From: an uncultured virus (IMG/VR IMGVR_UViG_3300010353_000982)
Lineage: Duplodnaviria; Heunggongvirae; Uroviricota; Caudoviricetes
Length of the DNA stretch: 64,000 nucleotides
Virus record (IMG/VR): IMGVR_UViG_3300010353_000982
Strand: one strand, 5' to 3'
In this document: positions 14,405 through 62,109 of the stretch, piece by piece
Position numbering within the stretch: position 1 is the stretch's first letter
Layout: each line of letters starts with the position of its first letter
Made by a program: the position numbers and the translations under genes
Notes under the pieces: model-generated
The model's database searches: none
What the model was told of the DNA's origin: nothing
Seen by the model: the letters and a program-made list of their open reading frames with translations, nothing else

Positions 14405-14410
14405 TTGAAC

Positions 14411-14422: not shown

Positions 14423-14449
14423 CTTTTTTTATCACTAATATTGTAGTGC

Positions 14450-14788: not shown

Positions 14789-14792
14789 CCAT

Positions 14793-16292: not shown

Positions 16293-16519
16293 GCAAACCA
16301 GATCCATTTATCAACACACTTTGTTTTAATGGTTTCAAATGCAGAGGAAATCATTGTAAGGCATGGAATGGAGGAGAAAATGATTGTGAATTTATCATGG
16401 CTGCGCGCGAACAACACTATGCATCTCGTGGGATAGTTAATATAGTGCCGCAGAAATTGGTTTCAGAATCAAATACTTCTCCGTCGACCACAAAACCCAT
16501 AAAAGCGAAGAAGAAATAA
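16289..16519 (+). CDS. Small Cys-rich protein
   Basis: C...C...CxAW...C pattern; ATGA overlap. Confidence 0.6.
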   Translation: MSKPDPFINTLCFNGFKCRGNHCKAWNGGENDCEFIMAAREQHYASRGIVNIVPQKLVSESNTSPSTTKPIKAKKK

Positions 16520-16523
16520 ACCC

Positions 16524-16537
16524 AAAACCTTTATTTA
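16524..16537 (+). promoter_or_regulatory. BRE-TATA promoter of replication operon
   Basis: AAAACCTTTATTTA ~25 nt upstream of tRNA-like element E1. Confidence 0.6.
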
Positions 16538-16562
16538 GTATTATTGCCATATATATTGCAAA

Positions 16563-16631
16563 GAGTGCCGCAGGCAGCGCGTGGCGGGTATCCAATCCCC
16601 CATGGCAGGAGGTTCAATTCCTCTCGCACTC
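16563..16631 (+). ncRNA. tRNA-like element E1 (degenerate cloverleaf)
   Basis: GAGTGC/GCACTC stem, CGC-AGGCA-GCG D-like arm, GGAGG-TTCAATT-CCTCT T arm; followed by TCCC-TTCG-GGGA hairpin and RBS. Confidence 0.7.
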
Positions 16632-16665
16632 CTCCCTTCGGGGAAAAAACAATGGAGTTCAATCC

Positions 16666-17730
16666 ATGTCTGTAAACATCAAAAAGGGTATCAAGGAAAT
16701 GAGCCAGAAGCTCGGCAAGTCCGAGGAAGAGCTCATCGCTGAAATGGCGAAGTTTGAATCCGATCTCTCGGCTATTTTCGACGATACCGAAGAGGTAAAG
16801 CAGGCCGCATTCAAGCAGCTTCGTGGCGCATACCGCGCACAGATGAAGTCGAATGCCAAGATGTTTGAGGGATTTTTCTTTGCTATGCAGCCTGTTCGTA
16901 ATGAGAATGACTTTCCGATCAAAGAGGCCGACAAGGAGTTTAAGAAACTCTCCGACGAAGTTGGTCGTGAGGAGGCCGTCGCCCAGTGGCAGGGTCTCGG
17001 AAAGATGAATGAGAATGAACAGTATCTGTTCAATGCCGACAACACTACCGATGCAATGAAGTGGAAGCGTGGTAAGGTTATCGAGCGCTTTGTGCCTGTC
17101 AGGGAATGCTACGGTTTCTTCAAGGAGCCCGACGTCCAGGGGAGCAAGATCCGCTTCGGTATTGTGACCATGCGCCACGAGCCCGAGAAATTCATTCCAG
17201 AGATGCTCAAGGTTTATTCCTTCAGGGCCACTGGTAAACCCGAGAACACACCGCTCCGTCTGAATGGAACGTCTGTGACTTCTCTTACCGATACTGGAGT
17301 CACTATCGATTTCGACATCTTCGTTAAGATGATTGGACAGGATATGCCAAAGAATGTCAAGTCATTCGATGATGTCTACAATCTTGACAAGGGTGTCTGC
17401 AAGGTTCCCGAGAACCCAAGGTTCTTTATCACGAAGGCCACGATTTCTCGTCTAAACGTGACTGACAAACCCGATCTGAATATCGATTTTGCCGATATAA
17501 CAGATCTTGTTGGTGACTTCGATCCTGTCTCGATGACAGTCTCCAAAGATCTCGGTGGTATTTATGAGAATGCCATTGGTATTGCAGTATATGCTCCGTA
17601 TATCAAGACCAAGGACAATACTGCTGCAGGAAACCTTTACGGGTTTATCACTGCCGACAATGCACCGAAACCAGCGCCTGTTGCCAAGAAAGCAGCAGCA
17701 AAGAAGAACACCGATGAAAATTGGGAGTGA
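16666..17730 (+). CDS. Putative ssDNA-binding/replication protein
   Basis: Beta-rich core, flexible tail ending acidic (TDENWE), upstream of recombination ATPase; function inferred. Confidence 0.45.
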   Translation: MSVNIKKGIKEMSQKLGKSEEELIAEMAKFESDLSAIFDDTEEVKQAAFKQLRGAYRAQMKSNAKMFEGFFFAMQPVRNENDFPIKEADKEFKKLSDEVGREEAVAQWQGLGKMNENEQYLFNADNTTDAMKWKRGKVIERFVPVRECYGFFKEPDVQGSKIRFGIVTMRHEPEKFIPEMLKVYSFRATGKPENTPLRLNGTSVTSLTDTGVTIDFDIFVKMIGQDMPKNVKSFDDVYNLDKGVCKVPENPRFFITKATISRLNVTDKPDLNIDFADITDLVGDFDPVSMTVSKDLGGIYENAIGIAVYAPYIKTKDNTAAGNLYGFITADNAPKPAPVAKKAAAKKNTDENWE

Positions 17731-17738
17731 ATTAATCA

Positions 17739-18671
17739 ATGGCAAAAGCAAAGGATACTGACTGGAACAATGCAGATAACGGTGGAGAATCCACCGATGA
17801 ATCTGCTGCCGCAGAAGTAGCGCTCAAAGGAACAGGAAAAGTATCCAAAGCCTTGAAAGAAAATCTCATTCGAGACAAGGTAATGGAACTGAAGCGGGAT
17901 AGAGATGACGACATCATGCCCGACTTCGATCTGGACAGTGCTCTTATGGATACGAGTAGCAGTAAGAAAGTATTTACTGTTTATGGACACAAGAATGACG
18001 CCAAGACTACGACTGCAATGGGAGTAGCAAAGAAGGGCGACAAGGTTGCCGTCCTGTCATTCGATTTGAAATCTGACCGTCCAACCGACCTCGATTTCAT
18101 AAAGAAAAGCGGTGTAGATTACAAGGTTTTCAATGCTATCCTTTACCTTGACAAGTCAACGCCTGACCTGTATCAGACCACTGCCGAGAAGACCTATGTC
18201 TTCGTGCTGAAGCTTCTTGATGGAATCAAGGAGAAATATAAGCCCGATTGGGTAATCATTGACGGTTCTGAATTCCTGAACAAGATTCTTGAACAGGTAA
18301 TGAGGAAGCGCAACGGCGTAATGCCGTATCAGGGAGTCGCTAACCAGAACATCTGGAAGGAGCGTACCCAGTATATCGATGATGTTCACAAGCAGGCCAT
18401 GGACGCCGCAACCAAGGGAATTATGTATACGACGTATGTATCCAAAGATTCCGTGGTAAAGGACGGCGTAGTAGTTCAGCAGAAAGACATGCCGAAGTGG
18501 TTAGGCGATGTCATGTCGCAGACCGATGTCATCATTCGTGTTATCACCGACGTAAGTGGCGGTAAGACCGAATACAAGGCTGTCATTGAGTCCTCAAAAT
18601 TCCCGAGGGAGTTCCCTCCAGGAGAATATGTAATCACCAACAAGCGTCTTTACGACGTAATCAACAAGTGA
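17739..18671 (+). CDS. RecA-fold ATPase (Sak4/AAA_24-like)
   Basis: Atypical Walker A GHKNDAKTT, Walker B WVIIDG, TDVIIR strand. Confidence 0.6.
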   Translation: MAKAKDTDWNNADNGGESTDESAAAEVALKGTGKVSKALKENLIRDKVMELKRDRDDDIMPDFDLDSALMDTSSSKKVFTVYGHKNDAKTTTAMGVAKKGDKVAVLSFDLKSDRPTDLDFIKKSGVDYKVFNAILYLDKSTPDLYQTTAEKTYVFVLKLLDGIKEKYKPDWVIIDGSEFLNKILEQVMRKRNGVMPYQGVANQNIWKERTQYIDDVHKQAMDAATKGIMYTTYVSKDSVVKDGVVVQQKDMPKWLGDVMSQTDVIIRVITDVSGGKTEYKAVIESSKFPREFPPGEYVITNKRLYDVINK

Positions 18672-19394
18672 GTGACCAAGATGAAGATTGGTATCGACCA
18701 ACTGAAACGGTTCATCGATATCGCGGGTGTGAATAAAGATGGTTTTGAAGCCATTGCTTCGGCTGGCACATTAACATCCAATGTAATGAACGACGACAGA
18801 AATGTTGTTGTTATCGTTGAGATGCAGACAAAAGCTGGCGACGAAGCAAAATTCCGCCTGCAAAGAGATATTTTTCTCAAATATCTCCGAAATATCGATG
18901 GTAAAATGGTCGATATGACTTCAGATGATACCCTTATCACTGTCGAGGGTGAGGATGTAAAACTCTTCATCCCTCAAGTGGTTTCTGCTATTACCGACAA
19001 AACCAAAAAGCCATTACCACAATCGATGAGTAACTGGGAAATGCAGTCAAGGCTTACTTTTTCCCCAGTTAAAATTAAAAAGATTTTATCGGTAGTGGAT
19101 AATGTCGGTGAACGTGTTATTACCCTCGTGATAAGTGGTGGTAAAATCACGGCGAAGATAAAGAAAAGGGCGATTGTAAAAGATATCGGTGAAGTAACCG
19201 ATGGTGAGACCGATTTTACTATTTCTTACCATATTGGTGCGTTCAACGATGCATTTCAGGGTGCTTTAGATAAACCTGTTTTTGTCACGATATATTCTCC
19301 GATAGAGAATGATCGCCCGCCTTCGTCGTTCAATTATTCATCTGGAGACTTATTGATCAGTGGACTTCTCGCCGATTGGAGGGAAAAAGAATGA
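18672..19394 (+). CDS. Putative sliding clamp (PCNA/gp45-like)
   Basis: 240 aa two-domain pattern directly upstream of clamp loader. Confidence 0.6.
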   Translation: MTKMKIGIDQLKRFIDIAGVNKDGFEAIASAGTLTSNVMNDDRNVVVIVEMQTKAGDEAKFRLQRDIFLKYLRNIDGKMVDMTSDDTLITVEGEDVKLFIPQVVSAITDKTKKPLPQSMSNWEMQSRLTFSPVKIKKILSVVDNVGERVITLVISGGKITAKIKKRAIVKDIGEVTDGETDFTISYHIGAFNDAFQGALDKPVFVTIYSPIENDRPPSSFNYSSGDLLISGLLADWREKE

Positions 19395-20296
19395 TTTATG
19401 AACATATGTTCACCGAAAAGTATCGACCAAAATCTCTCAAAGAGGTTATCGGGGGAGATGAGATTCGTGGTCTTTATGAAGGAATTATAAACGACCCATG
19501 GACTCTTCCTAATATTCTTCTATCAACTCGTTCTGCAGGTACTGGCAAAACGTCAATTGCCAAGGCAATCATAGCTGACATTGGTGCTGATAGTTTGTTT
19601 TTGAATGCTAGTGACGACAGGGGAATCAATACCATTCGAGAACAGGTAAAGGAATTTGCCATGACGCAGGGATTCACGCGCAATATTCCGAAGGTGGTGC
19701 ATCTCGATGAGGCCGATGGTCTTACCAAGGAGGCCCAAGAAAGTCTTCGAAGCATCATGGAGCGGTATTCGTCAAACTGCAGATTTATATTTACCTGCAA
19801 CAACGAGTCCAAGATTATTGAGCCGATAAAGAGTCGATGCATTCAAATCAGTCTCAATAAACCGCCGAAGGACAAAATCCATGAGAGACTTCGATTCATT
19901 GTAGATCAGGAAAGTATGAATATTAAGGATGAAGAAATTGATGATATCATCGAGTTCTTTTATCCTGACATTCGTCTGATGATTAATGAAATCGAATACC
20001 TGAAAACATTCGGAAAAAGCAACAGGCGTAATATTGCCGATGAAGTTTACGCTCTCCTGAAAAAGAGGAAGTTTACCGAGGCACGCAAGTTATGGATCGC
20101 TGAACAGACAAGCCCTCGTCTTCTTGTAAAGGAAATATTTACAAGACTAATGTCAGACGATACTCTTTCCAAAGAGCAGGTTGTTGTGGGTGTTGAATAC
20201 GTTGCTGAAACGGATTTCAGAATAGCAATGGGTTCCGATGCAGAAATTACACTTGCCAACCTTACCATTAAGCTTGTTAGCGCCGTATTTAAGTAA
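19391..20296 (+). CDS. Clamp loader ATPase subunit (RFC-S/gp44-like)
   Basis: EKYRPK, AGTGKT, NASDDRG, LDEADG, SRC motif. Confidence 0.93.
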   Translation: MIYEHMFTEKYRPKSLKEVIGGDEIRGLYEGIINDPWTLPNILLSTRSAGTGKTSIAKAIIADIGADSLFLNASDDRGINTIREQVKEFAMTQGFTRNIPKVVHLDEADGLTKEAQESLRSIMERYSSNCRFIFTCNNESKIIEPIKSRCIQISLNKPPKDKIHERLRFIVDQESMNIKDEEIDDIIEFFYPDIRLMINEIEYLKTFGKSNRRNIADEVYALLKKRKFTEARKLWIAEQTSPRLLVKEIFTRLMSDDTLSKEQVVVGVEYVAETDFRIAMGSDAEITLANLTIKLVSAVFK

Positions 20297-20570: not shown

Positions 20571-20701
20571 TGGCAAGAGAAATGACTTTACGCTGCAAGG
20601 CAAAGAACTGTGACCACGACAGACTTGAAGGCCAGTTCCTTTTTCAAAAATGCCTTCGTTGTCCTGATTTCGAATTCGGCCCCAAAGGAAATGGTAAATG
20701 A
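20570..20701 (+). CDS. Small Cys-rich protein, 43 aa
   Basis: Hand-translated MAREMTLRCKAKNC...CLRC; coupled at both ends. Confidence 0.55.
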   Translation: MAREMTLRCKAKNCDHDRLEGQFLFQKCLRCPDFEFGPKGNGK

Positions 20702-21273
20702 GCATTTTAGTTGATCACGAAATACGTGATTTATGCAGAGATGCAGAACTGATATCTCCGTACTACGAAAGAAACATCAATCCAAATTCTTACGATATTA
20801 CACTCGCAGACGATTTTGTCTGGTATCGTAAACCTGGCCTCGGAGAGCCAATGTTCATTGATCCATTTGATCGAAAGACTGTTGAACTTTGCGTAGTCGA
20901 AGAAAAAGCGCTGGCAATCAAAATTGGCCAGAACGAATTTGCTCTAGGACGGACAGTTGAAACAATCAACCTTCCTTCCAATATAGCAGCCGTTCTTATG
21001 GGCAAGTCATCGCTTGCACGACTAGGAATAACCATTCATCAAACAGGAGGATTTATCGACAGTGGTTTTAAAGGAACGCTCACACTTGAAATTGGAAATA
21101 TCAACCCGAGGCATATTGTCCTCCACGCTGGAATGACTATCGGTCAGCTTGTATTCCACAAGTTACCAAATGCCCCTGACGTGACATATGGTGAAAAGAA
21201 AACATCAAAGTATCAGGGACAGATAGCACCGACGTTATCTCGTTACCATATGAATGAATGTATAAGGAGGTGA
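20698..21273 (+). CDS. dcd: dCTP deaminase
   Basis: PNSYD, GKSSLARLG, GFIDSGFKGTLTLE, YQGQ motifs. Confidence 0.93.
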   Translation: MSILVDHEIRDLCRDAELISPYYERNINPNSYDITLADDFVWYRKPGLGEPMFIDPFDRKTVELCVVEEKALAIKIGQNEFALGRTVETINLPSNIAAVLMGKSSLARLGITIHQTGGFIDSGFKGTLTLEIGNINPRHIVLHAGMTIGQLVFHKLPNAPDVTYGEKKTSKYQGQIAPTLSRYHMNECIRR

Positions 21274-24189: not shown

Positions 24190-24329
24190 GTAAAACTATC
24201 GTATTGCAGTGTGCTCTGTGCCATGGTACAGGCACAAAGGATAATGGAGACACATGTCTCTGTTATCTGTTTGGTGGCCCAATCAAGCGCTTTGACGGCG
24301 ATCTTTGGGAGGTAAAGAACGATGACTGA
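24186..24329 (+). CDS. Small Zn-finger protein (CxxCxGxG)
   Basis: Hand-translated MSKTIVLQCALCHGTG...CLC; overlaps both neighbours. Confidence 0.5.
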   Translation: MSKTIVLQCALCHGTGTKDNGDTCLCYLFGGPIKRFDGDLWEVKNDD

Positions 24330-27300
24330 AGATATGGTCGACGCAGTAATCGCCGCACGATATCTTAATAAGGGCGAGCGTGTTTGGGAAGACGTATGCA
24401 ACAGAGTATCTACCTTCGTGGCCAACGATGAAGGACAGCGTGAACAGTTCTTTGAACTCATGCTAACAGGAAAGTTCCTTCCAAATTCTCCGACGCTTAT
24501 GAATGCAGGAACTGATATTGGTCAATTATCAGCCTGCTTCGTCTTACCTGTTGATGATGATATGCAGGGAATTTTCGACGCTGTAAAGTGGACGGCCATG
24601 ATTCATAAGTCAGGCGGCGGAACAGGATTCAATTTCTCAAACCTGCGTGCCGAGGGATCACCAGTTGGATCTACTAATGGTGTTGCATCTGGCCCCCTGT
24701 CCTTCATGAAAGTATTCAATGAGGCGACAGAGACGGTAAAGCAAGGAGGTAAGCGACGTGGCGCGAACATGGGCATTCTGAACTGTACCCATCCTGACAT
24801 CAAGAAGTTCATCGTTGCCAAGAAAACCGAGGGCCAACTTGCCAACTTTAATTTCTCCGTAATGATAAATGATGACTTTATGAAGAAGGCTACCGATGCA
24901 GGCTACACTGGTGAGGAAAAAGAAATCTTCGATATGATAATTGATAACCAGTGGAATAACGGAGAACCGTCTTTTTTGTTCTACGATAATATCAACAAAA
25001 ATCCACATACTCCTGCCCTTGGCCCCATCGAGGCAACCAATCCCTGTGTTACTGGAGATACTCTTCTCCTGACAGAGATTGGTTATGAGCCAATTGAACA
25101 ACAGGTAGGACGAAAGATACATATCTGGAATGGATACGAGTGGTCAGAAGTCACTCCATGTAAAACAGGCACTAATCAAAAGATAATGAAGCTTACATTT
25201 ACAGATGGTAGTGAATTAAAATGTACCCCGTATCACAAATTTGTTTGCACGCTTAATGGAAAAGAATACCGAGTAGAAGCAAAAGATATCCATGTCGGAG
25301 AATCGATTGTAAAGTTTGATTTCCCTGTGATTCATGGATGGTTCAAGCTTGCAAATGCATATACCCATGGATTCTTCTCTGGCGACGGTCATATCGATGC
25401 TCGTGGTCGTAGTTTAATCTATCTTTACGGAGAAAAGAAAAATCTCGTCGATGTAATCTCATACAAATCCATTTGGAATTGTAATGGAAGAGATGTTTTA
25501 CAACTCGATAATGAAACTATCTGGAATAAGACATTTGTTCCCGATGCTTTCTACGACGTTGAATCAAGACTTATGTGGTTGAATGGTCTTATCGATTCCG
25601 ATGGATGTAATAACACTGGCGCTATCCAGATATCGTCGGTGGATCGTGACTTCCTGCAGAGAGTAAAGTATATGCTTCATACTCTCGGCGTAACTGGCGT
25701 TATTTCGATAATGAAGAAAGCCTGTTGCAAGATGATGCCCGATGGCAAAGGAGGACAGAAAGAATATAATTGTAAGGAGTGCTATCGCATATCGATTTCT
25801 TCTGGCGATGTAATGAAATTATATAATCTCGGCCTTGATACGCATCGTATAAAGATAACAACAATTCCACAGCGTAGTGTAAAACAATTCATTAGAATCA
25901 AGTCTATTGAGATGCTTGAAGAATTGGAAGATGTTTATTGTCTAACAGAGCCAAAGAATCACACGATGATTTTAAACGGCATATTGACGTCGAACTGCGG
26001 AGAGCAGCCCTTATATCCCTTCGAATCGTGTAATCTCGGTAGTATAAATTTATCCAAGTTTGTAGATGAAAGTGGTCAGTTCGATTACAATGGTCTACAA
26101 GAAACAGTTGTCGCCGCAGTACAGTTCCTCGATAATATCATCGACAAGAACAAATTCCCCCTGCCACAGATTGAGAAGGCCACGAAGAGAACACGAAAGA
26201 TTGGCCTCGGCGTGATGGGATTCCACGACGCACTTATCATGATGGGTGTTCCTTATGATTCAAGACGTGCAGTCGAGATAGCCAATTCTATCATGGAAAA
26301 TATCGAGACTGTAGCCAAGGACACATCAGAAACTATGGCAATGGAACTTGGTGTTGCTCCGTATTATGAACAATACCCAGACTCAACCGAGGATCGTCGC
26401 CGCAATGTTTGTCTTACCTGTATTGCCCCGACAGGTTCAATTTCTATCCTCGCAAAGTGCTGGTCAGGAATTGAGCCCGCGATATGGGTAATGCAAAGAA
26501 ATAATACCGTCGGAAAGTCTTTCTTTATCGTGCATCCGCTCTTCGAAAAGATGCTTCGTGAAGAAGCTGACGAGCGCGGCATTGACGAGGATGGTATTCA
26601 GAAGGCCATTGCTGACGTCCATGCATCAGGATCTATCGAGGTAATCGATTGGCTGCCGAAGAAAATCAAGCGGCTCTACAAATCAGCCTTTGATCTGACA
26701 TGGAAGCAGCACCTTGATATTGTTATAGCTTTCCAGAATCATGTTGACGCGGCGGTTTCAAAAACCGTGAACATGCCCGCTGAATCTACCAAGCGCGATT
26801 TCATGGACGCTGTTATCTATGCATGGAAAAATGGACTGAAAGGAATTACTCTCTACAGGACTGGAAGTCGTGAGGACGAAGTTCTTACGCTGGCCAAGGA
26901 AACCGCACAAGAGAAAACAAAAAGGATGTCTGACACATGCAAGAGAATGCCATTCTTCGATGAGAAGACACAAGAATGGCGCTGGCTGCCAAAGCGACCC
27001 GATATTCTCCCGACGTATGGATTAAAGAAAATGCGCTCTGGTTGTGGAGATCTTCTTATTGACATCAGCGAGATGGAAGGCAGACCGTATGAATGTCTCG
27101 GCGATTATACTCTTGGTGGCGGAGGTTGTGATGCAATGCTCCGTACGACGAGAGTTCTCCTGGGGCTTTGTTTCCGCTGGGGAGTTCCAACGTGGGATAT
27201 TGTAAAGAATCTCAAGGCCATCAAATGCGACGTTGCGCGAGAAAAATACAGGCGTGGTGAGGCCGACGGTATTTCGTGTGCAAATTGTATTGGTCGTTAT

Positions 27301-27522
27301 CTCGAAGAAAACATTCCTGACGATATGGAGGAACTTGCTTATCCATTCAAGAATGGTAATAAGGAAAAATTCCTCAAAGAAATTGGGCTCATATTTGGCT
27401 CACAACCATTAGACGTGAAGCTCGTCAAGGAAGAAATGATATCATGTCCCGAATGCGGCTCCGAGATTCTCAAAGAAGAAGGATGTCGTAAATGTCATAA
27501 CTGTGGATGGAGTCAGTGCTAA
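24322..27522 (+). CDS. nrdJ: Class II (B12-dependent) ribonucleotide reductase with intein and C-terminal Zn-ribbon domain
   Basis: PNSPTLMNAG, LSACFV, GGKRRGANM, NP|CGEQ, APTGSIS, SKTVN; CPEC...CHNC tail. Confidence 0.95.
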   Translation: MTEDMVDAVIAARYLNKGERVWEDVCNRVSTFVANDEGQREQFFELMLTGKFLPNSPTLMNAGTDIGQLSACFVLPVDDDMQGIFDAVKWTAMIHKSGGGTGFNFSNLRAEGSPVGSTNGVASGPLSFMKVFNEATETVKQGGKRRGANMGILNCTHPDIKKFIVAKKTEGQLANFNFSVMINDDFMKKATDAGYTGEEKEIFDMIIDNQWNNGEPSFLFYDNINKNPHTPALGPIEATNPCVTGDTLLLTEIGYEPIEQQVGRKIHIWNGYEWSEVTPCKTGTNQKIMKLTFTDGSELKCTPYHKFVCTLNGKEYRVEAKDIHVGESIVKFDFPVIHGWFKLANAYTHGFFSGDGHIDARGRSLIYLYGEKKNLVDVISYKSIWNCNGRDVLQLDNETIWNKTFVPDAFYDVESRLMWLNGLIDSDGCNNTGAIQISSVDRDFLQRVKYMLHTLGVTGVISIMKKACCKMMPDGKGGQKEYNCKECYRISISSGDVMKLYNLGLDTHRIKITTIPQRSVKQFIRIKSIEMLEELEDVYCLTEPKNHTMILNGILTSNCGEQPLYPFESCNLGSINLSKFVDESGQFDYNGLQETVVAAVQFLDNIIDKNKFPLPQIEKATKRTRKIGLGVMGFHDALIMMGVPYDSRRAVEIANSIMENIETVAKDTSETMAMELGVAPYYEQYPDSTEDRRRNVCLTCIAPTGSISILAKCWSGIEPAIWVMQRNNTVGKSFFIVHPLFEKMLREEADERGIDEDGIQKAIADVHASGSIEVIDWLPKKIKRLYKSAFDLTWKQHLDIVIAFQNHVDAAVSKTVNMPAESTKRDFMDAVIYAWKNGLKGITLYRTGSREDEVLTLAKETAQEKTKRMSDTCKRMPFFDEKTQEWRWLPKRPDILPTYGLKKMRSGCGDLLIDISEMEGRPYECLGDYTLGGGGCDAMLRTTRVLLGLCFRWGVPTWDIVKNLKAIKCDVAREKYRRGEADGISCANCIGRYLEENIPDDMEELAYPFKNGNKEKFLKEIGLIFGSQPLDVKLVKEEMISCPECGSEILKEEGCRKCHNCGWSQC
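25045..25995 (+). mobile_element. Intein (317 aa) with LAGLIDADG endonuclease in NrdJ active-site loop
   Basis: Starts CVTGDT, CTPYH block B, GFFSGDG and GLIDSDG, ends ILTSN before catalytic Cys. Confidence 0.92.
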
Positions 27523-29835: not shown

Positions 29836-30507
29836 ATGTTATTAATTGATAATCGTGAACAGGACATGGTGGCTCGCGTCGTAAAGCGGGCCAAGAAAGA
29901 AGAGGTTGAACATGAAGTTCTCGAAATGGAAACGGGTGATTACTGTTGGACAAAAGACGATACCATGGAGTGTGATATATGCATTGAGCGTAAGAAGGTA
30001 GGAGATCTCATCCAGTCGAAGCGCAACGGACGCCTCGACAATCAATTGAAGAGAATGAATGCCAGCTTCCCATTCTCTTACCTGTTTATCGTCGGCAAAT
30101 TCGAGAACATTTATATGTCTGACAAATACATCAAGGGATGGACTGCAGAACATACCATAGGACTCAAGGCCAGCATCTCGGCGAAATATCCTTACGTGCA
30201 TATCATTGAACTGCCGAATGATACCCAATTGATCGATATGATTTTTGTCATGAAACAAAAATTCGATGAACACAAAGAACTTCGAGAGGCATCATGTATT
30301 GATTTGAAATTCAAAAAGAAGCGCATTAATGAACTGAATCCAAATTTCGTTCATTATTGCCAGATGGCAGGCATAGGAGAAAAGAAAGCCGAGGAAATTC
30401 ATGAGGAGTATCCATCATTCCTGGAATTTCTCACCGATGCAAAGAATGGTAAATTGAAAGTCAAAGTACCGTCGAAAACTCACGAATGGATAAAAAGGAT
30501 GTGCTAA
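29836..30507 (+). CDS. ERCC4/XPF-family nuclease
   Basis: IDNRE, GDY, IERK..DL..S..GRL; HhH GIGEK. Confidence 0.9.
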   Translation: MLLIDNREQDMVARVVKRAKKEEVEHEVLEMETGDYCWTKDDTMECDICIERKKVGDLIQSKRNGRLDNQLKRMNASFPFSYLFIVGKFENIYMSDKYIKGWTAEHTIGLKASISAKYPYVHIIELPNDTQLIDMIFVMKQKFDEHKELREASCIDLKFKKKRINELNPNFVHYCQMAGIGEKKAEEIHEEYPSFLEFLTDAKNGKLKVKVPSKTHEWIKRMC

Positions 30508-30509
30508 AA

Positions 30510-31124
30510 ATGTTATTCACTATCGAAGGAATTGATGGTGTTGGTAAGACAACCGTCATCAACACCTTGAAAGGAATGCTCGTTGACTACAAAGATGTTA
30601 TCTTCACGAAGGAACCGCAGTATTTTACCACCGAACAAAAACATGCTTTGGTCAAAATGGAAGACCCCGTGGAGAAGCTTGCTACCTTCTTCCTCGACCA
30701 CACAAAACACACGAGAGAAGTCCTCGATCCAAATATCGAAGACAAGATTATCATCTGTGACCGTTATATTCATTCACGAATTGCATATCAGGCACTGGAA
30801 ATTTCTCGCTTGTATGAAATGCCACTCGATGATGTAATTGATTATATCGAGGGAATGCATTATTTCTCATACTGGCCCGACAAAGTTTATGTCATCTGGT
30901 CAGACGAAGAACTGTTGGCCAAGAGACTACGAGCTCGTCATGATGATATGGACATCTCCGATATGAACAGATTGCTTGCAACCGAAGAAGTGCTTTGTCA
31001 TGTCCTGACACGAGGCGATCCATATTCGGTTCCCTATGTTGGTGTTGAGATGGATGAGGATGGTTTCAATTACAGTGCTATGGAAATATACCAGAACATT
31101 GTAGAAACTATAGACAACTCCTAA
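30510..31124 (+). CDS. tmk: Thymidylate kinase
   Basis: EGIDGVGKTT, KEP, DRYIHSRIAYQ. Confidence 0.92.
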   Translation: MLFTIEGIDGVGKTTVINTLKGMLVDYKDVIFTKEPQYFTTEQKHALVKMEDPVEKLATFFLDHTKHTREVLDPNIEDKIIICDRYIHSRIAYQALEISRLYEMPLDDVIDYIEGMHYFSYWPDKVYVIWSDEELLAKRLRARHDDMDISDMNRLLATEEVLCHVLTRGDPYSVPYVGVEMDEDGFNYSAMEIYQNIVETIDNS

Positions 31125-55571: not shown

Positions 55572-56016
55572 GACACAAATAGAAACAAATCGTTTCTGAA
55601 ATTGGAACAATCGAAATCTTTTTTAGTTCAGCAATAGAAATAGGTAAGAGGGGATATAATATGCCTAAAGAATTTACCGACGGCAGCGATGCCGAGCTTG
55701 GAAATGATGAGATATATTATGACAAGATTGTCGGAGCCACGCGGCGCAAGAGATTGCCTGACGGCACGCTTGTCTGGTATCCGATTGAAAAGAAATAACC
55801 ATGAACGAAGATGCTCTTGAAAAACTGAAGCGCATGGCAATGCAGCGGTGTACTGATCGAATCAAGAGCGGCGAGAAAATGCCCCAATACGGGGTAACTT
55901 CTATTTTAAAAAAGAAATACTTACTTTAAAAAAGATTAATTATTATTGCCACAAATAAACGAATGTGAGCCGCAAAACGTGTTCTATATAATATCAACTG
56001 GATAAGATATAAAGAT

Positions 56017-56086
56017 TTCGGAGGAAACTTCGGAGGAAACTTCGGAGGAAACTTCGGAGGAAACTTCGGAGGAAAGTTCGGAAAAA
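56017..56086. repeat. Tandem 12-bp repeat TTCGGAGGAAAC x5 plus partial
   Basis: Read directly. Confidence 0.95.
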
Positions 56087-56197
56087 GCCTCATATTCGCG
56101 TTTTAAGCTTCATGAAAATCAAGGTAAGAGAATAGTGCAGCAGCGGGCAGAAAGTGCCACAGAATCAATCCTACCCCCCGCCAAATTGATGTTAGGA
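56087..56197 (-). repeat. Imperfect inverted repeat, right arm (partner 31119-31228)
   Basis: Reverse complement aligns with left arm at both ends. Confidence 0.85.
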
Positions 56198-56821
56198 TAT
56201 GGCCGCTGAAAACTCTTTTTCTAGTTCAGATCTTGTCCAGTTACTTTCATATAATATTGCCCTGCACCACTTCTTCAACTCTTCATGAGTAAGCGAATGT
56301 TTCATAACATTGGCCTGAAAACAACAGAGAACCACATTTCCACGCACATAACCCTTGGACGATTTAATGCGGTCTATTGATATCGACGTAGGAAGCCCAC
56401 CTTCGATATTGAAATCTATCGACATCTGGAAACCAGTATATTTGCAGAGTCCTCCCTGCAAGGTATAGAGTTCTTTCAAGTAATCTATCGTCAGGTCGAA
56501 CTTCATTTTCTTATCCCGAGCTCTTTCCCGTGATCTTTTAATTAAATCGGCAAATTTTAAATTGAGCGGATCATCGACTTTTTTCTTTTCCCTTATCCTT
56601 TTTCTCGATGCTGCCACCCGATTCCGCTTTACTTCTGCAGACAAAGCAGCTTGAGCTTGCCTCGACCTTTCAATCTCCCGCTTTCTGTATTCAGGATGTC
56701 CATGGTAGTAGGCTTTAGAATAGGCCCGCTTACAAGCCCTACACGCCCTGCGATCTGCACACATCTCTGATTCTGGCTTTGTTTCGCCACAAGTGGCGCA
56801 TTTATACATCTGTTCTTCCAT
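56192..56821 (-). CDS. HNH-type (homing-like) endonuclease with N-terminal Zn finger
   Basis: CxxC...CxxC; SIDRI.S.KGY..GNV.LCC...N..K. Confidence 0.8.
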   Translation of the reverse strand: MEEQMYKCATCGETKPESEMCADRRACRACKRAYSKAYYHGHPEYRKREIERSRQAQAALSAEVKRNRVAASRKRIREKKKVDDPLNLKFADLIKRSRERARDKKMKFDLTIDYLKELYTLQGGLCKYTGFQMSIDFNIEGGLPTSISIDRIKSSKGYVRGNVVLCCFQANVMKHSLTHEELKKWCRAILYESNWTRSELEKEFSAAIS

Positions 56822-57223
56822 ATAACACTATACGTTGCCATAGTATATAGTTATATTGGAAAAAAATTTTTTTTTTGGAAATGCGAAAATCAAGGTAATG
56901 AAAGCAACCAAAAACGATTCACGGAGGAAACCCCCACTTACATGCACCATCATATACAAAAACACGAGGTAAGGTGTATCAAAGTAGGGGTGCTCCCTCG
57001 GGCATTGCCACAAATACGGCCATATAAGATTTGAAAAATGTCTTGTCGAGAATTTTCACTAGGCGCGACGACAGAAATATGCCCCCCGCTTCGAGATCTG
57101 GGCAAAATAAGCCCGTAAACTCGTCCGATTGTCACAGCGACGCCGCCAGGACTTCTAATTATCCTCATGAATATAAATCGTTTTCTCGACGACGCCCCGA
57201 CGTCCACGTCGTCACCCCCGAAG

Positions 57224-57266
57224 CGTCTGACATGTGTCTGCCACCTGTCTGCCACTTGTCTGACAC
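57224..57266. repeat. Tandem ~11-bp repeat TGTCTG(C/A)CAC x3-4
   Basis: Read directly. Confidence 0.8.
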
Positions 57267-57807
57267 GCCCTATGTGCCGCACCCACTCCGTGCCCCACGA
57301 CGGACACGTCGCCATCACGACGTCAAGATAAGATTTCGTTTTCATTTATATACCTTCCGCCGCGCCGCCCGCCTGACAGCGCATCCCCCCGCGCCCCTCG
57401 TTGCCACGACGTAATCCTGGCCCGACGTAAATGACGACGATAACGACGGGACGTCGACACTATAGCACCCGACGTGCCACACCTCGCCCCCCGTCGACAT
57501 TTTCTCGCCCCCACGACGTCACCGACGTCCCGCCCCTCGGCCTGTTCTCTTACCTGCAGACGACAACCACGTCGCCACCGACGGAAAACCCCCCGATTTC
57601 ACCACGATTTCCACGTCGACACGACGTTACGACGATGGTTCGCCGTTGCTACGACGTTGTCCGTCGTTCGACGAAATAACGTCTGAACGCACGCCTGACC
57701 ACGACGTTAAATTTTCAAAACCTTCACGACGGAGACACGACGAGATACGACGCATTTCTTAATTCGAATGACTTCTTAAAAAACTAAAAAGCCATTTTTG
57801 ACCCTTC

Positions 57808-57842
57808 TTAATAATAATAATAATAATAATATATATATATAG
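57808..57842. repeat. (TAA)n-(TA)n simple repeat flanked by TTCTTA motifs
   Basis: Read directly. Confidence 0.9.
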
Positions 57843-58018
57843 TAAAATATGACTTCTTAGTTTCTTAAGAAGTAGAAGAAACCGAGAAATGCGACGTACA
57901 CCGACGTTAAAATCAGGGGGATGCTATTTTCGAGATTACGTCGTGCTCCGACGTTAGCGGTTCAATTTGGGCGTTTTTGGCTAAAATAACGTTAAATCTT
58001 ATCTCGTTATCTTGTTAT

Positions 58019-58051
58019 CCCGACGACTTCCCGACGACTTCCCGACGACTT
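58019..58051. repeat. Tandem 11-bp repeat CCCGACGACTT x3
   Basis: Read directly. Confidence 0.9.
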
Positions 58052-58690
58052 CCCCTCGTTATCTCGACGATTTCCCGACATCTCGACGTCCACTCGACGT
58101 TGACTTTTCCACTGGAAATCCCGCTTTATGTCGATGGAAACCCCATATTGGCGTTTTAAGGCCAAAAAACCCCCTCCGCATACTATTGTCCGAAAAAAGA
58201 GGTAAAGCCAGCCAGAAACGCGGGAACCTACCTTAAAATCGATTTTAGGCCGATATCGTCACTTCATACCGACAACCCCTTTGGCCCGACGTGGCCCCGA
58301 CGTAAAATCGCTCCCCACTCCGCTGCCCGCTCCGACGTGGCGACCCTGCCCGCCTCCCCCGTATCCAGACGCTGCCGATGCTCTTTACCTCGTGGCTCCC
58401 TCGTGGCTCGACTGACGGCCCCATCCCTCCGCAAACCCAGCGCCCCGACGTGAAGCGCGCCCCGCCCCAACGACGGCCCCAGCCGAAGGCGACGACTGAA
58501 GCCCCTCGTTTTCGTCGTTCCGTCGTGACTTCCTCGTTACCGACGTTAAAATGGCATTTTCAACGACGGAGCAACGCCTGGAGCCTTTCCGTCGTGGTCT
58601 CGACTGAAGCCTTAACGCCTGACTCCCTCGGCAACTTTCCGACGTGAAGCCCGACGGCAACGTCTGAAACGACCCTCGCCCCGACGTAAG

Positions 58691-58703
58691 CAAACCTTTA
58701 TCA
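58691..58703 (+). promoter_or_regulatory. BRE-TATA promoter heading the structured region and early genes
   Basis: CAAACCTTTATCA, same motif as other viral promoters. Confidence 0.6.
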
Positions 58704-58721
58704 TGTCAAAGGTCAATTTTG

Positions 58722-59270
58722 TTTTGTGAAATCGCAGGGAAAAACGCCAAACGGCGCGATGCCCTGACGGTGACACGACTGATGCACGTCGTAAACAACA
58801 GGGGATAAGGCGGAGCGTTTACGACGGAAGGATTACAGGGCTCCAAGGGTTTCCTCGTTTTTTAGGAGGTTCAGACGTAAAACCGACGGGCCGTCTCTGA
58901 CGGACACCACCTGATTCCCCCGACGTATACGGCGTATGAGGTATGGGTTTTTGCTAAAGATTCTTCAGTCGATGGCGACGGCGTGGCATTCGAAGGTAAC
59001 GGAGAACACCACGGCGGATGAACTATCAGTTTACGAGACGGACACGATGAGATGTCCGACGGGGAATCGCATAGTCTTCAGTCGTTTTCCTCTCCGTATA
59101 AGTCGTTAAACGTCACAAAAAATCCCTGACGGTGACAACGATGAAGGAATGCCATTACCTTCGGAGTCACCCGTCGAAAAAAAGTCATACCGACAGGCGA
59201 AATTTCCGACGGCGCTTCAACCTTTCCAACCACGGAAGACACGGAGTGCCCGACGAAGGAACGTGATTTT
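58722..59270 (+). ncRNA. Candidate large structured ncRNA or 5' leader
   Basis: No ORF >=60 aa; many nested and crossing helices; 3' end uncertain. Confidence 0.55.
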
Positions 59271-59404
59271 TGAGTCGTAAAAATGGAAAAAATCTTGAAT
59301 TTACGAGGGGGCCGTCGAGGCTACCCCGTGCAAATTTACTCGTGGTGATAAAGTCGGCCACGTCGAGAAATCGGCGTTGTCGGCGTCAACTAGGAGTGAA
59401 AAAA

Positions 59405-60082
59405 ATGGCAATCAATTTCGATTTTTCGACTGAAGTGCAGGAGAAAATCACGGCGGGCCACGTTAGGGCTCACGATGAAAAGTTCCGCGTCACCACGTCG
59501 AAAATGACGGGAAAACTTGCAGGCATCGTCGGAATTTCGACGAACCCCCTCGCAAATCCCTTCTGTAAATCGATGCAGAACGTCGAGGGAGCCGTCTGTC
59601 AGAATTGTTACTCGTGCAGGATGCTTTTATCGTCGAGAAAGCAGGCGATAACGGCGTGGACGGCGAATACCGTCGCCCTGTCCGACGACAATCTGTCAGA
59701 TGAAATGCTCCCGTCGATACCCGACGGCGCTTATGTGCGGTTCAATCCACACGGCGAGATTACGTCGGAGGCAATGGTGCGGAATTTCTTCCGTATTGCA
59801 CGGAGGAACCCGACGGCGCACTTCGTTCTCTTTACGAAGAGATACGAACTTGTCCGTCGTTGCGCCGACGAGAAGCCCTCAAACGTGGCCCTCGTTGCCT
59901 CGGCGTATCACCTCAATAAGCCCGTCGATAGCGTCGAAGGCTTCGACACGGTTTTCCGTGTCTTTACGCCTGAATACGCCGATTCTCACGGCGTAAAAAT
60001 CAACTGCCTCCTCCGTTGCAACGACTGCAAAAAGTGCTGGTCTACCGACGGTGGACAGGTGATTAATGAGAGACTCAAATAA
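59405..60082 (+). CDS. Phage Gp88-like Cys-cluster protein
   Basis: SKMTGKL, C...CxxCY, RFNPHGE, FTKR, C...CxxCxxC; AGGAGTGA RBS. Confidence 0.7.
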   Translation: MAINFDFSTEVQEKITAGHVRAHDEKFRVTTSKMTGKLAGIVGISTNPLANPFCKSMQNVEGAVCQNCYSCRMLLSSRKQAITAWTANTVALSDDNLSDEMLPSIPDGAYVRFNPHGEITSEAMVRNFFRIARRNPTAHFVLFTKRYELVRRCADEKPSNVALVASAYHLNKPVDSVEGFDTVFRVFTPEYADSHGVKINCLLRCNDCKKCWSTDGGQVINERLK

Positions 60083-60087
60083 CCTTT

Positions 60088-60130
60088 TTCCCGACGCTTT
60101 CAGGCGTTGAAGTTCAATCTTCACGGGGAA
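60088..60130 (+). ncRNA. tRNA-like element E3
   Basis: TTCCCG/CGGGGAA stem, ACGC-TTTCAG-GCGT hairpin, TGAAG-TTCAAT-CTTCA arm. Confidence 0.7.
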
Positions 60131-60173
60131 TTCCCGACGAGACCGTCGAGTCTCCGAGGGCGGAGTTAAAAAA

Positions 60174-60509
60174 ATGGCTACAGACGCAAACAACGACGCA
60201 GTCGTCGATATGTCGGTTGAATATGACAATGTGAAGTTTCTTCACGTCGAAAAGAACGACGATAAAGTTAAATTTGTCGTCGAATTTTACGACGGTGGAA
60301 AGACAGGGCCACATTACGTCAATAAAATCGACTGGATAACCATTTTAACGGCGGCTGCCGTCGGAAGTTCGACGCTTACCATCCACGGTAACGAGGCGCA
60401 CTACACGGGCTACTCGTCGTATGGCGGTAAAGTTGTCGTCGAGGTAAAGGAACTTGAACAGTCGAAAATGCGGTTTGTTAACGTCGAAATGTCGTTACCA
60501 AACCACTAA
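60174..60509 (+). CDS. Hypothetical protein
   Basis: GGAG RBS; ORF track. Confidence 0.7.
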   Translation: MATDANNDAVVDMSVEYDNVKFLHVEKNDDKVKFVVEFYDGGKTGPHYVNKIDWITILTAAAVGSSTLTIHGNEAHYTGYSSYGGKVVVEVKELEQSKMRFVNVEMSLPNH

Positions 60510-60511
60510 TT

Positions 60512-60554
60512 TTTCTCGGCGCTATCAGGCGTTAAGTTCAATCTTTCCGAGAAA
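60512..60554 (+). ncRNA. tRNA-like element E4
   Basis: TTTCTCGG/CCGAGAAA stem, CGC-TATCAG-GCG hairpin, AAG-TTCAAT-CTT arm. Confidence 0.7.
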
Positions 60555-60598
60555 TTCCCGAGGAGCGCTCGACGTTCCGACGGAGTGAGTGATAAAAA

Positions 60599-60856
60599 AT
60601 GGCTGAAAATACGACGGTGCTCGACGCACTGGAGAAGTTGTATGTTTCTTCGACGAAATACGGCGCGCCACAATGCGCTTACCTCCGTTATGACGTCAGA
60701 AAACACGACTGGTATTGTGACTATCGTAACTCTCGACGCGACCGATATCAGGACGTCTGTGTTTACGACGACAAGACAGTCGAAAATCTCCGTAAAATCG
60801 AGCAAACCTGCCCCTGCTGGCACGACGATATTCTCGACGGTGATAACGATGATTGA
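60599..60856 (+). CDS. Small Cys-rich protein (paralog 1)
   Basis: C.YLR.D...WYC...RRD...VCV.DD...CPCW. Confidence 0.7.
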   Translation: MAENTTVLDALEKLYVSSTKYGAPQCAYLRYDVRKHDWYCDYRNSRRDRYQDVCVYDDKTVENLRKIEQTCPCWHDDILDGDNDD

Positions 60857-61025
60857 ATGCGAATATCTCCGTTTTGATTACGTCGAGCGGGAATGGTATT
60901 GTGCGTTTCGTCTGACCCGACGTGATAAGTTAAATTACGTCTGTGTTTGCGACGATGACGACGTAAAGCAGTTGATTGCCGACGAGATTTACTGCCCCTG
61001 CTGGCGTAGTCTCGACGATGAATAA
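60849..61025 (+). CDS. Small Cys-rich protein (paralog 2)
   Basis: Same motif; GGTGA RBS before ATG 60849. Confidence 0.7.
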   Translation: MIECEYLRFDYVEREWYCAFRLTRRDKLNYVCVCDDDDVKQLIADEIYCPCWRSLDDE

Positions 61026-61028
61026 ATT

Positions 61029-61072
61029 TTTCAGTCGCGCTTATGGCGTAAAGTTCAATCTTTCGGCTGAAA
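61029..61072 (+). ncRNA. tRNA-like element E5
   Basis: TTTCAGTCG/CGGCTGAAA stem, CGC-TTATG-GCG hairpin, AAAG-TTCAAT-CTTT arm. Confidence 0.7.
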
Positions 61073-61107
61073 TCCCCCGAGGAAACGACGGGGTTTAGGT
61101 GAAAAAA

Positions 61108-61269
61108 ATGGCTTTTGGAATAAACTCAATTTGCCGTCTATATCTCGACGGTGAAGTATTTCACGTATGCTGCAATCGTGAAGTAGTAGAATCGATGAAA
61201 TCCCGACTGGTTCAGGCGGGTATTTCGGCGGAACGCCTTCGAGTTACGGAGAGAATGCCGAATATCTGA
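61108..61269 (+). CDS. Hypothetical protein, 53 aa
   Basis: AGGTGA RBS; hand-translated MAFGINSICRLYLDG... Confidence 0.6.
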   Translation: MAFGINSICRLYLDGEVFHVCCNREVVESMKSRLVQAGISAERLRVTERMPNI

Positions 61270-61451
61270 ACCAATTTTTCGACGGAGCGGAATCTCACCG
61301 CCGACAACCGACGGTGGGACGCATCTGACGGAGAATCGACGGAAAATCCTGGAGAACGACGGATACCGACGACTTCACGCACCATGCGCGGAAAAAAAAA
61401 GCAGCCCAGTTTGGCCCCAGTTGGGGTATTTGGGCAGGAATTGAGTAGAAA

Positions 61452-61661
61452 ATGCAATCAGTCCAGTTTATGCACCGCGACGGGCATTGTGAAGACTTCC
61501 TCGAATTTACGGAGAGTCTTGGTTTCGATGCCAGTGCAGCACAGTCAGACGAAGATGGCATGGACTGTATCGACAACGCCCTCGAATGGCTCAACAGAGC
61601 ACACGATGGCGTGCGGTATATTCTCGCCGAGTTTGGGGTGGTGGTAGCAGTTCCCGCGTAA
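61452..61661 (+). CDS. Small acidic protein
   Basis: ORF track. Confidence 0.6.
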   Translation: MQSVQFMHRDGHCEDFLEFTESLGFDASAAQSDEDGMDCIDNALEWLNRAHDGVRYILAEFGVVVAVPA

Positions 61662-61753
61662 CGACGATTTGCTACCTGAACCCGCCCCTCACTCCTAGTT
61701 CATGCTGATACTCAACGACGGGAAGAGAAATTCATTCCCGTCTGATACCATAG

Positions 61754-61812
61754 TTTTTTATCCCGTAACGTCGTAAGGGTGCGTCCCTGCGGCGCGGAGA
61801 TAGTTAACAATG
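61754..61812 (+). promoter_or_regulatory. Intergenic hairpin overlapping RBS (family B, copy 3)
   Basis: T6-ATCCCG-TAA-CGTCGT...GCGGCG-CGGAGAT then ATG. Confidence 0.5.
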
Positions 61813-62109
61813 TTTATCGTATGTCCGTCAGTCCCATCGACTGAAATGGCAATGGAAGTTTTGCACCGTGCCCAGCGGTGTGTTAAACTGTTGGCTGACG
61901 TTTCTGCGTCGGAACAGTTAGACCCTTACCTCGAAAATGAGTTAATACGAGGGTGGGACGAAGCAGAACTTAAAGACCCGATACTGCGCGACCTGTTCCC
62001 ACGACTGTATCTTGAATCAGATTTTTTTCTGATTTACGACTTCGGTCTCGACGGTTCAGTGCGGAAGATAACGCCGATGTCACGGCGGTTATTGTATCAG
62101 GAGAAATAA
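61810..62109 (+). CDS. Hypothetical protein
   Basis: ORF track; GGAG RBS. Confidence 0.6.
   Translation: MFIVCPSVPSTEMAMEVLHRAQRCVKLLADVSASEQLDPYLENELIRGWDEAELKDPILRDLFPRLYLESDFFLIYDFGLDGSVRKITPMSRRLLYQEK

Follow-up and report, generated by a model that had tools for sequence, protein, structure and literature searches.

GOLLD and ROOL are described as large ornate RNAs that are often carried by phages and prophages (bioRxiv 10.1101/2024.12.08.627333; PMC5737381). Here we describe a candidate non-coding RNA of ~550 nt at positions 58738–59290 of a 64,000-nt stretch of DNA from an uncultured virus (IMG/VR record IMGVR_UViG_3300010353_000982); this whole stretch is referred to below as the window. 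The element resembles GOLLD and ROOL in being several hundred nucleotides long, non-coding and phage-borne, in combining conserved hairpins with variable expansions, and in having no known function at discovery. It differs from them in that it matches neither covariance model, in the window or in a distant relative (locus L024), at expectation (E) values up to 10; in that it does not lie beside tRNA genes, ARAGORN detecting 0 tRNA or tmRNA genes in the window; and in that two supported hairpins only are found here, as opposed to an ornate or multimeric fold.

The early leader RNA of phage T7, which runs from promoters A1–A3 to the RNase III site R0.3, is an abundant separate species. Our element is likewise an untranslated stretch of a few hundred nucleotides that heads early genes beside a non-coding repeat region and would be a separate species. 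It differs in that a separate promoter-like block follows the RNA, and the likeness is one of position, a relation in sequence not being expected.

On balance we lean towards an early non-coding RNA that stands alone and represents a new family, with hairpins that would hold conserved single-stranded blocks for a protein partner. What is established is that the DNA is conserved, that a contig of it occurs in RNA libraries, that it contains no conserved open reading frame (ORF) and that two hairpins carry compensatory changes over two lineages; the remaining parts of the RNA are lineage-specific expansions.

A non-coding element in RNA libraries of two studies

The segment 56800–60200 is present, whole or in part, in 20 of the 24 public runs listed, which sample activated sludge, wastewater and digesters in 13 studies; 8 of these 20 runs are recorded as RNA. 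We aligned contigs of three RNA runs (X17, X19 and X20) and one DNA run (X14) to 56000–61000. X19 and X20 are metatranscriptomes from two different studies, and in both a contig covers the following feature.

58738..59290, plus strand: candidate non-coding RNA, ~550 nt (X19 and X20 contigs, no conserved peptide, no Rfam match)

The X19 contig (565 nt, mean word depth 178) spans 58738–59287 and has adapter letters directly at both ends, and the X20 contig spans 58745–59291. The next contigs in X19 and X20 start at 59362 and 59365 and then at 60148 and 60144, respectively, with depths of 11.8, 17.5 and 2.5 for the remaining X19 contigs. Neither run has contigs over 56000–58737 or 59292–59361, although a hole in contig cover proves nothing, and the DNA run X14 is unbroken over 58081–61000, that is, across both borders of the RNA. 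The contig stops shared by the two studies are a weak hint of RNA ends. Two types of adapter, whose identities we presume, lie at the X19 contig ends, and their order is likewise a weak argument for a plus-strand RNA, provided that the library was made by the common dUTP method.

The preliminary description of this region, made from the letters and a list of ORFs, called it ORF-free and proposed a new large viral RNA at nearly this place. The region is indeed ORF-poor, the longest ORF inside being 57 amino acids, and a natural 29-nt deletion (59023–59051, in X19) frameshifts that ORF. Translated comparison with L024 found no conserved ORF (the best of 31 segments scored 23.9 bits, over the DNA of hairpin H1, described below), with the Gp88-like gene as positive control at E 3e-90. 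A small protein was rejected on this ground, there being no conserved peptide with L024. A tRNA, tmRNA or tRNA-like element was also rejected, as ARAGORN finds no cloverleaf in the window. Against the 4227 models of Rfam 15, the whole window gave 0 matches at the gathering score, GOLLD, ROOL, RNase P, 6S, tmRNA, group I/II introns and HEARO included; at E values up to 10 there were only 5 chance-level microRNA and snoRNA matches in 56800–59500 and only 3 chance-level matches in L024 1200–4200. Judged from these model searches, the RNA belongs to no described RNA family. A literature search on phage non-coding RNA in sludge metatranscriptomes and on CGACG phage repeats returned nothing on the RNA or the motif. 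Of the large viral RNA first proposed, a discrete, conserved, non-coding element with contigs from two studies stands; that it is a transcript of its own, and that it acts as one, is what we infer.

Conservation in close relatives and in one distant relative

A protein-anchored scan of metagenome contigs yielded 6 loci from 165 candidate stretches, and the four that span the RNA (L007–L010) are near-identical to the window over it. Among the window and these four loci, the only variable positions in the RNA are 58795, 58818, 58839, 59213, 59231 and 59265. Counted over the window and three of the loci, there are 7 variable columns in 58532–59531 versus 130 in 57532–58531, the latter being mostly repeat-copy indels. 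The X19 variant without the 29 nt at 59023–59051 loses only the tip of a long hairpin in the predicted fold, which keeps 153/153 base pairs outside the deleted segment.

The distant relative came from an alignment-based scan for Gp88, with one genome per species, in which 1 locus was obtained out of 19 candidate stretches. Early and flanking proteins of L024 are 41–72% identical to those of the window, and the gene order is different. BLASTN of the RNA against L024 gave no match. Global alignment combined with a diagonal search recovered a colinear chain of blocks between the window and L024, which has the upstream promoter block at one end and the next promoter at the other. The chain begins with upstream AAGCAAA..TTTAT and GTCRATTT words followed by the H1 hairpin, continues with GGT..AAAACCGACG and with AAAATCCCTG (10/10 identical), and ends with the 3' hairpin and then CCGTGCAAATTT and TGATAAAGTC before the next gene. 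Two segments of the RNA differ in how they fare in this comparison.

58868..58951, plus strand: conserved sequence blocks GGTTCAGACGTAAAACCGACG, GATTCCCCCGACG (13/13 identical in L024) and TATGGGTTTT (10/10)
58952..59118, plus strand: lineage-specific long-hairpin domain, with ~50 nt instead in L024; contains the 29-nt deletion 59023–59051

L024 has a lineage-specific insertion of its own, ~220 nt located 3' of H1. Further upstream (L024 2450–2850), the AT-rich part of its non-coding region contains several copies of a palindrome, (C)ATGATTAATCAT(G), which by their sequence look like operators.

Other searches for the element were negative. A DNA search of GenBank phages with 56800–59420 in distant mode gave no match. 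The nearest available genome (G001) and the nearest available virus record (G002) contain other parts of the phage and not the RNA region, and 152 genomes of the family of G001 gave a single 33-nt chance match, which lies within a coding region and is not a CRISPR spacer. In IMG/VR, searches with two exact 20-mers, with the Gp88-like and HNH proteins and with a Gp88 alignment all came back empty. A capsid-protein search of IMG/VR gave 8 loci, none of which extends to the RNA region, and 5 of their records searched for the RNA contained chance matches of 14–17 nt only. An exact 20-mer found nothing in GTDB genomes.

Two hairpins with compensatory changes

The comparison with L024 supports two hairpins in which the stem sequence changes while pairing is kept. 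A third, smaller hairpin lies near the 5' border.

58787..58826, plus strand: hairpin H1, a 10-bp stem with a 20-nt loop containing GGGGATA; compensatory changes
59211..59250, plus strand: two-tier 3' hairpin (59211–18/59243–50 and 59223–27/59234–38); compensatory changes
58744..58757, plus strand: small 5'-proximal hairpin with a CGCC-AAAC-GGCG core; on the minus strand, a terminator-like hairpin followed by T5

The counterpart of H1 at L024 3315–3354 has the same 10-bp stem length, the same 20-nt GGGGATA loop and the same flanks with another stem sequence. In the alignment 29/30 cells are paired and 3/10 pairs are changed on both sides, one of them occurring as AU, GC and UA. This score was reached by 11/500 shuffles, and partners slid by 1–3 columns pair in 27–33% of cells. 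With a covariance model of H1, a single plus-strand copy is detected in each genome. The stem also covaries among close relatives. The changes 58795 A>G and 58818 T>C co-occur in 4/4 related loci and also in runs X14, X19 and X20, and these two positions are pairing partners in the H1 stem, CGTCGTAAAC/GTTTACGACG. If 7 single-nucleotide polymorphisms (SNPs) of the same types fell at random, one compensated pair would arise in any of the perfect stems of 8 bp or more with a probability of 0.006.

The 3' hairpin was absent from the helix list of the preliminary description. Here 51/52 cells are paired and 5/13 pairs are changed on both sides; 2/500 shuffles reach this score, and slid partners pair in 42–69%. 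Each sequence has three or four G-U pairs in this hairpin, and on the minus strand only 39/52 cells pair. Because the G-U pairs fail on the minus strand, the 3' hairpin points to the plus strand. The small 5'-proximal hairpin has a counterpart at the matching place in L024, in which a G-U pair can form on the plus strand alone and the minus-strand T-run is missing.

We have also considered an RNA from the minus strand, which would start near 59290 and end at the hairpin-plus-T5 at 58757–58739. Such an RNA would account for a terminator-like site that coincides with the left border of the contigs from both RNA libraries, and a -10-like TAAATT is found at 59303–59298. Several observations speak against it. 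Terminator-like sites occur at chance frequency (9 versus 9.3 in shuffles), and a bacterial intrinsic terminator as the end of a minus-strand RNA was rejected: the hairpin with T5 is present in the window and not kept in L024, in which there is no T-run and the G-U pair becomes A-C. The start would fall on a T, the minus-strand fold has z −1.29, the pairing of the 3' hairpin favors the plus strand as just described, and the upstream word AAGGTCAATTTT resembles AAGTTCAATCTT of three plus-strand early genes. We regard a minus-strand RNA as quite improbable, and the RNA as likely to be on the plus strand.

Complementary strings and folding energy

The preliminary description listed 10 complementary string pairs and two internal repeats, all of which are present at or beside the positions given there. 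Examples are as follows.

58722 / 59113: complementary pair TTTTGTGA / TCACAAAA
58787 / 58817: complementary pair CGTCGTAAAC / GTTTACGACG, the longest perfect stem of the RNA
58913 / 59061: complementary pair GATTCCCC / GGGGAATC
58762 and 59124: internal repeat CCCTGACGGTGACA
58962 and 59075: internal repeat TCTTCAGTCG

As helices, these pairs fared unequally. CGTCGTAAAC/GTTTACGACG is supported by covariation, and the other pairs are without such support. GCCCTG/CAGGGC is broken by 58839 G>T in 4/4 related loci, the 5' arms of TTTTGTGA/TCACAAAA and of ATCGC/GCGAT lie upstream of the observed 5' end of the RNA, and none of the other listed helices retains both arms in L024 with at most 1 mismatch.

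Taken as a whole, 58738–59290 contains 7 perfect stems of at least 8 bp versus 2.7 +/- 1.6 in 40 dinucleotide shuffles, 0/40 of which reach 7. The minimum free energy of the same segment has z = −1.99. For 58691–59270 the value is z = −2.41 on the plus strand, where 1/100 shuffles fold as well, and z = −1.29 on the minus strand, where 13/100 shuffles are as good. Windows of equal size in the upstream repeat region have z −1.6, −0.04 and −0.27, and windows in the downstream coding DNA fold more strongly than the RNA (36 shuffles each).

59400–59952: strongly folding coding window, z −5.09
59960–60512: strongly folding coding window, z −4.78
61080–61632: strongly folding coding window, z −4.17

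Folding energy alone does not single the RNA out, because coding windows nearby fold better and CGACG/CGTCG is enriched. The strong folding of the early coding DNA is probably a consequence of CGACG/CGTCG pairs, and many of the pairings in the RNA are a by-product of the same local excess. The compositional bias that had been named as a possible trivial explanation accordingly applies to many pairings and to the energy. A CsrB-like sponge, suggested by repeated ACGGA words, was rejected: the GGA words that were checked sit in predicted stems and follow from the DNA word CGACGG.

Promoter-like blocks on both sides of the RNA

The conserved chain begins and ends with promoter-like blocks.

58689..58725, plus strand: upstream block with two promoter candidates, AAGCAAACCTTTATCAT and AAGGTCAATTTT; aligns with L024 ~3216–3250
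59338..59404, plus strand: next promoter-like block TGATAAAGTC, then leader and Shine-Dalgarno sequence of the Gp88-like gene

The candidate AAGGTCAATTTT at 58709 resembles, with 2 mismatches, the 12-mer AAGTTCAATCTT, which is found exactly at 60110, 60534 and 61051 before three plus-strand early genes. RNA-library contigs begin 18–27 nt past the ends of these AAGGTCAATTTT/AAGTTCAATCTT 12-mers. The other candidate, AAGCAAACCTTTATCAT, had been described as an archaeal-type promoter, a TATA box preceded by a transcription factor B recognition element (BRE). In archaea the distance from the center of the TATA-like octamer to the start is usually ~26–27 nt, with a purine-rich BRE just upstream. 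The block proved to be conserved, and in L024 it contains a stronger TATA-like word: TTTATCAT (58697–58704) corresponds there to TTTATATA preceded by GCAAAG, which by its letters has an archaeal look. The RNA contigs start 34–41 nt downstream of the TATA-like word, farther than the usual ~26 nt, and the archaeal promoter is putative. A second conserved word, GGTCAATTTT, is centered 22–30 nt before contig starts, contig ends not being transcription starts. In position, the early-gene words, centered ~26 nt before contig starts, would fit a TATA box better than a −35/−10 pair. Counting against an archaeal BRE-TATA, the only genome bins that hold the phage or its relative (G001 and the bin of L024) are bacterial.

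Three early genes are preceded by copies of an intergenic element of ~97 nt (60085–60179, 60510–60604 and 61020–61100; 79% identical), which carry the exact AAGTTCAATCTT and a GGAATTCC-like word. Contigs start 23–27 nt after the 12-mer, and T5 runs lie directly behind the stop codons that precede these elements.

The downstream block bears on whether the element could be a 5' leader of the early operon that is released or attenuated. Such a leader would be ~550 nt of untranslated, hairpin-rich RNA that is made from one early promoter and is cut or terminated before the first gene, by analogy with the A1-to-R0.3 segment of T7. Its role would be in cis only, for which we can envisage a processing site, antitermination or transcription-driven DNA entry. 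The element does lie directly upstream of early genes on the same strand, it heads the early gene block in L024 too, despite a different gene order behind it, and a contig of X17, an oligo-dT RNA library, bridges 59291–59361. This library probably contains DNA, because it also covers the repeat region. It counts against a leader that the RNA and the first gene have between them a distinct, conserved promoter-like block, TGATAAAGTC, which is 10/10 identical at L024 4007–4016 and is repeated before L024 early genes; the X19 and X20 contigs restart at 59362 and 59365, just behind it. The two compensated hairpins and the invariant blocks also suggest more than a spacer. We consider a leader with a cis role only to be unlikely, yet it is the main competitor of our reading.

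The preliminary description had the RNA perhaps acting with the adjacent Gp88-like protein. This was not borne out, as the adjacency is not syntenic: in L024, ~1 kb with at least 2 other genes separates the non-coding region from the Gp88-like gene. The ribozyme and the pseudoknots put forward there are hypothetical. From its position, it is plausible that the RNA is among the first transcripts.

The origin-like repeat region and the CGACG array

Upstream of the RNA lies a region that is laden with repeats.

57000..58737, no strand assigned: ORF-free, repeat-laden control region with CGACG/CGTCG at 31 per kb, an 11-bp tandem array and an AT-rich palindrome
58018–58079: 11-bp tandem array TCCCGACGACT x5.6, with a copy number that varies between strains
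~57734–57910: AT-rich palindrome with (TAA)7(TA)n, flanked by inverted repeats; hairpin-type matches on both strands

In its architecture the control region looks like a replication origin, and it lies at the cumulative GC-skew minimum. An RNA at this site could be an origin transcript that activates or primes replication at the adjacent iteron and AT-rich region as an R-loop or primer. ColE1 RNA II, T4 ori(uvsY) and T7 phi1.1 are precedents for R-loop or primer RNAs. Like them, the element would be a folded ~550-nt transcript beside an origin-like region; the 1.7-kb array that it adjoins contains 11-bp iterons, an AT-rich palindrome and the GC-skew minimum, and the element is similar in length to RNA II. 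It differs from RNA II in that, on the favored plus strand, it would be transcribed away from the AT-rich core. Furthermore, the GC-skew minimum is confounded with a switch of gene orientation and the origin is itself putative, and we judge an origin transcript to be very unlikely.

The pentamers CGACG and CGTCG, which are mutually complementary, are ~10–20x enriched across 57000–62000 in non-coding and coding DNA. CGACG occurs at 20–26 per kb in 57001–59000 and 60001–61000 versus 0–5 elsewhere, and CGTCG is also raised. The spacings of the 122 sites in 57000–62000 prefer 8–12, 18–23 and 29–34 bp, with almost none at 13–17; 98 sites in L024 1500–6000 have the same enrichment and spacing preference. 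These distances are indicative of helical phasing. The array also runs through genes, where most sites read nnC-GAC-Gnn or nnC-GTC-Gnn, and the sites have no consensus extending past [C/A][C/A]CGACG[not C]. Because the 10–11-bp phasing of the sites is combined with 11-bp iterons and an AT-rich palindrome, this pattern of letters suggests that, at the early genome end, a protein may bind cooperatively on one side of the double helix.

Such binding could mean that the RNA is incidental and that the element works only as DNA, its hairpins being inverted-repeat binding sites within a protein-binding array of CGACG words, CGACTGAAG words and palindromes. There are 9 CGACG/CGTCG sites inside the RNA and the array continues on both sides with its 10–11-bp phasing, and 5/9 exact CGACTGAAG copies of the window lie in 58493–59435 in both orientations. 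However, the density of sites is lowest inside the RNA, at 16 per kb versus 31 and 22 per kb in the flanks, and the stems vary while pairing is kept, with conserved G-U pairs that fit RNA and not duplex DNA. An element that works at the DNA level only is in our estimate extremely unlikely. The word CGACTGAAG has 32 matches in the window at up to 1 mismatch versus 14.2 expected, and it is not kept in L024.

58493, 58601 and 59427, plus strand; 58963 and 59076, minus strand: exact CGACTGAAG copies near or in the RNA
58493, 58601 and 59427: same-strand complement CGACUGAAG of CUUCAGUCG

The second of these features recalls the antisense immunity RNAs CI of P4 and c4 of P1, as the RNA here would be an early-leader RNA with two copies of CUUCAGUCG and same-strand complements up- and downstream. 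It differs from P4 CI and P1 c4 in that the complementarity is 9 nt and is not kept in L024, and in that the RNA is ~8 times longer.

The phage and its genomic setting

The window is the nearly complete genome of an uncultured tailed phage that encodes an HK97/encapsulin-like capsid protein, a tail tube and a tape measure. The large terminase (10292–12730) and a ribonucleotide reductase (24322–27522) each have LAGLIDADG/intein domains, and there are genes for a family B DNA polymerase, an RFC-like clamp loader, an ERCC4-type nuclease and an SNF2 helicase. The majority of the phage proteins have no Pfam or PHROGs match. Packaging RNAs of the phi29 type are ~120–174 nt long and belong to phages with a protein-primed family B polymerase. 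An RNA of this type was rejected, since our RNA is ~550 nt and the polymerase here matches PF00136/PF03104, which is not the protein-primed type. Thymidylate-synthase-like (8461–9156), dCTP-deaminase-like (20698–21273) and dNMP-kinase-like (30486–31124) proteins are encoded together in this genome, a set often associated with phage DNA in which a base is modified or replaced.

Genes run rightward in 1–31000, leftward in 31000–56800 and rightward again from 59405. Between the leftward block and the last rightward block there are ~2.4 kb without a credible ORF, and the candidate RNA is the right-hand quarter of this gap.

59405..60082, plus strand: Gp88-like gene, the neighbor of the RNA (Pfam PF17338, E 1.6e-12)

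Homologues of the Gp88-like protein have identities of 99, 80, 61 and 60%. On the other side of the gap, an HNH/endonuclease VII-like gene of 209 amino acids (56203–56860) is replaced by 12 letters in the X14 and X17 contigs and is also absent from loci L007–L009; this gene is a mobile homing-endonuclease insertion. In the short gap 5' of it is a perfect 12-bp tandem repeat, TTCGGAGGAAAC x5.5, at 56017–56082.

The gene content (family B polymerase, RFC-like clamp loader, ERCC4 nuclease) is compatible with either a bacterial or an archaeal domain. The G001 genome bin contains window 12377–20000 at 100% identity, and its small-subunit ribosomal RNA scores 1248 bits with the bacterial model versus 862 bits with the archaeal one. 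L024 is in a bin titled uncultured Acholeplasma, a bacterium. Genome bins may be wrong as host indicators.

Discussion

We favor the view that the element is a single-copy, plus-strand unit of ~550 nt set between the origin-like control region and the first early protein genes. The RNA would have a promoter to itself, one of the type that serves the neighboring early genes, and would end before the next promoter. It would act as RNA, with a hairpin scaffold that displays the invariant blocks GGGGAUA (in the H1 loop), GAUUCCCCCGACG, UAUGGGUUUU and AAAAUCCCUG, and a host or phage protein partner may be bound early in infection, for which the RNA could serve as decoy or scaffold.

A number of points weigh against this view. 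The library evidence consists of assembled contigs, from which the real ends, the strand and the abundance of the RNA cannot be read and whose depth cannot rank genes. In X20 the piece is not a bounded molecule, as the contig goes on past 59291 for 3.4 kb that does not resemble the window, and the X17 contig described above crosses the 3' border as well. The comparative support comes from two lineages only, and the 3' hairpin was proposed by RNAalifold on the same alignment that was used for counting. The RNAalifold counts of compensated pairs are similar for the two strands, 11/50 for plus and 12/52 for minus (a coding control gave 4/53, lower than either strand of the RNA), and 14/50 plus-strand pairs are broken in L024. 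The natural SNP sets are not more fold-preserving than random ones, with 10% of 150 random sets as stabilizing, and with the downstream coding windows at z −4.17 to −5.09 the folding energy is locally unexceptional.

The departure of X20 from the window sequence falls exactly at the 3' border of the RNA. A 14-nt word of the run-on is absent from the window (one 2-mismatch match, at chance level) and from all fetched loci, and we read the run-on as a mosaic junction or, alternatively, an assembly chimera.

A bolder reading is that the RNA founds a new class of large structured phage RNAs and that, jointly with the 5-kb phased CGACG array, it forms an undescribed system for take-over, genome entry or replication start. 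It would place this system in a widespread wastewater phage lineage whose replication and promoter signals are partly archaeal-looking. We think this distinctly unlikely.

If the RNA is only a leader, it would represent ordinary phage early-region anatomy in a very poorly annotated lineage. Large phage non-coding RNAs are few and mostly of no assigned function, and this one is testable, given the hints of expression in RNA libraries of two studies, its presence in 13 sludge and wastewater studies and the two hairpins that it offers for mutagenesis. The RNA also borders a 5-kb CGACG/CGTCG zone, an unusual feature that may be the sign of a system which binds or marks the DNA of the phage at its early genome end.

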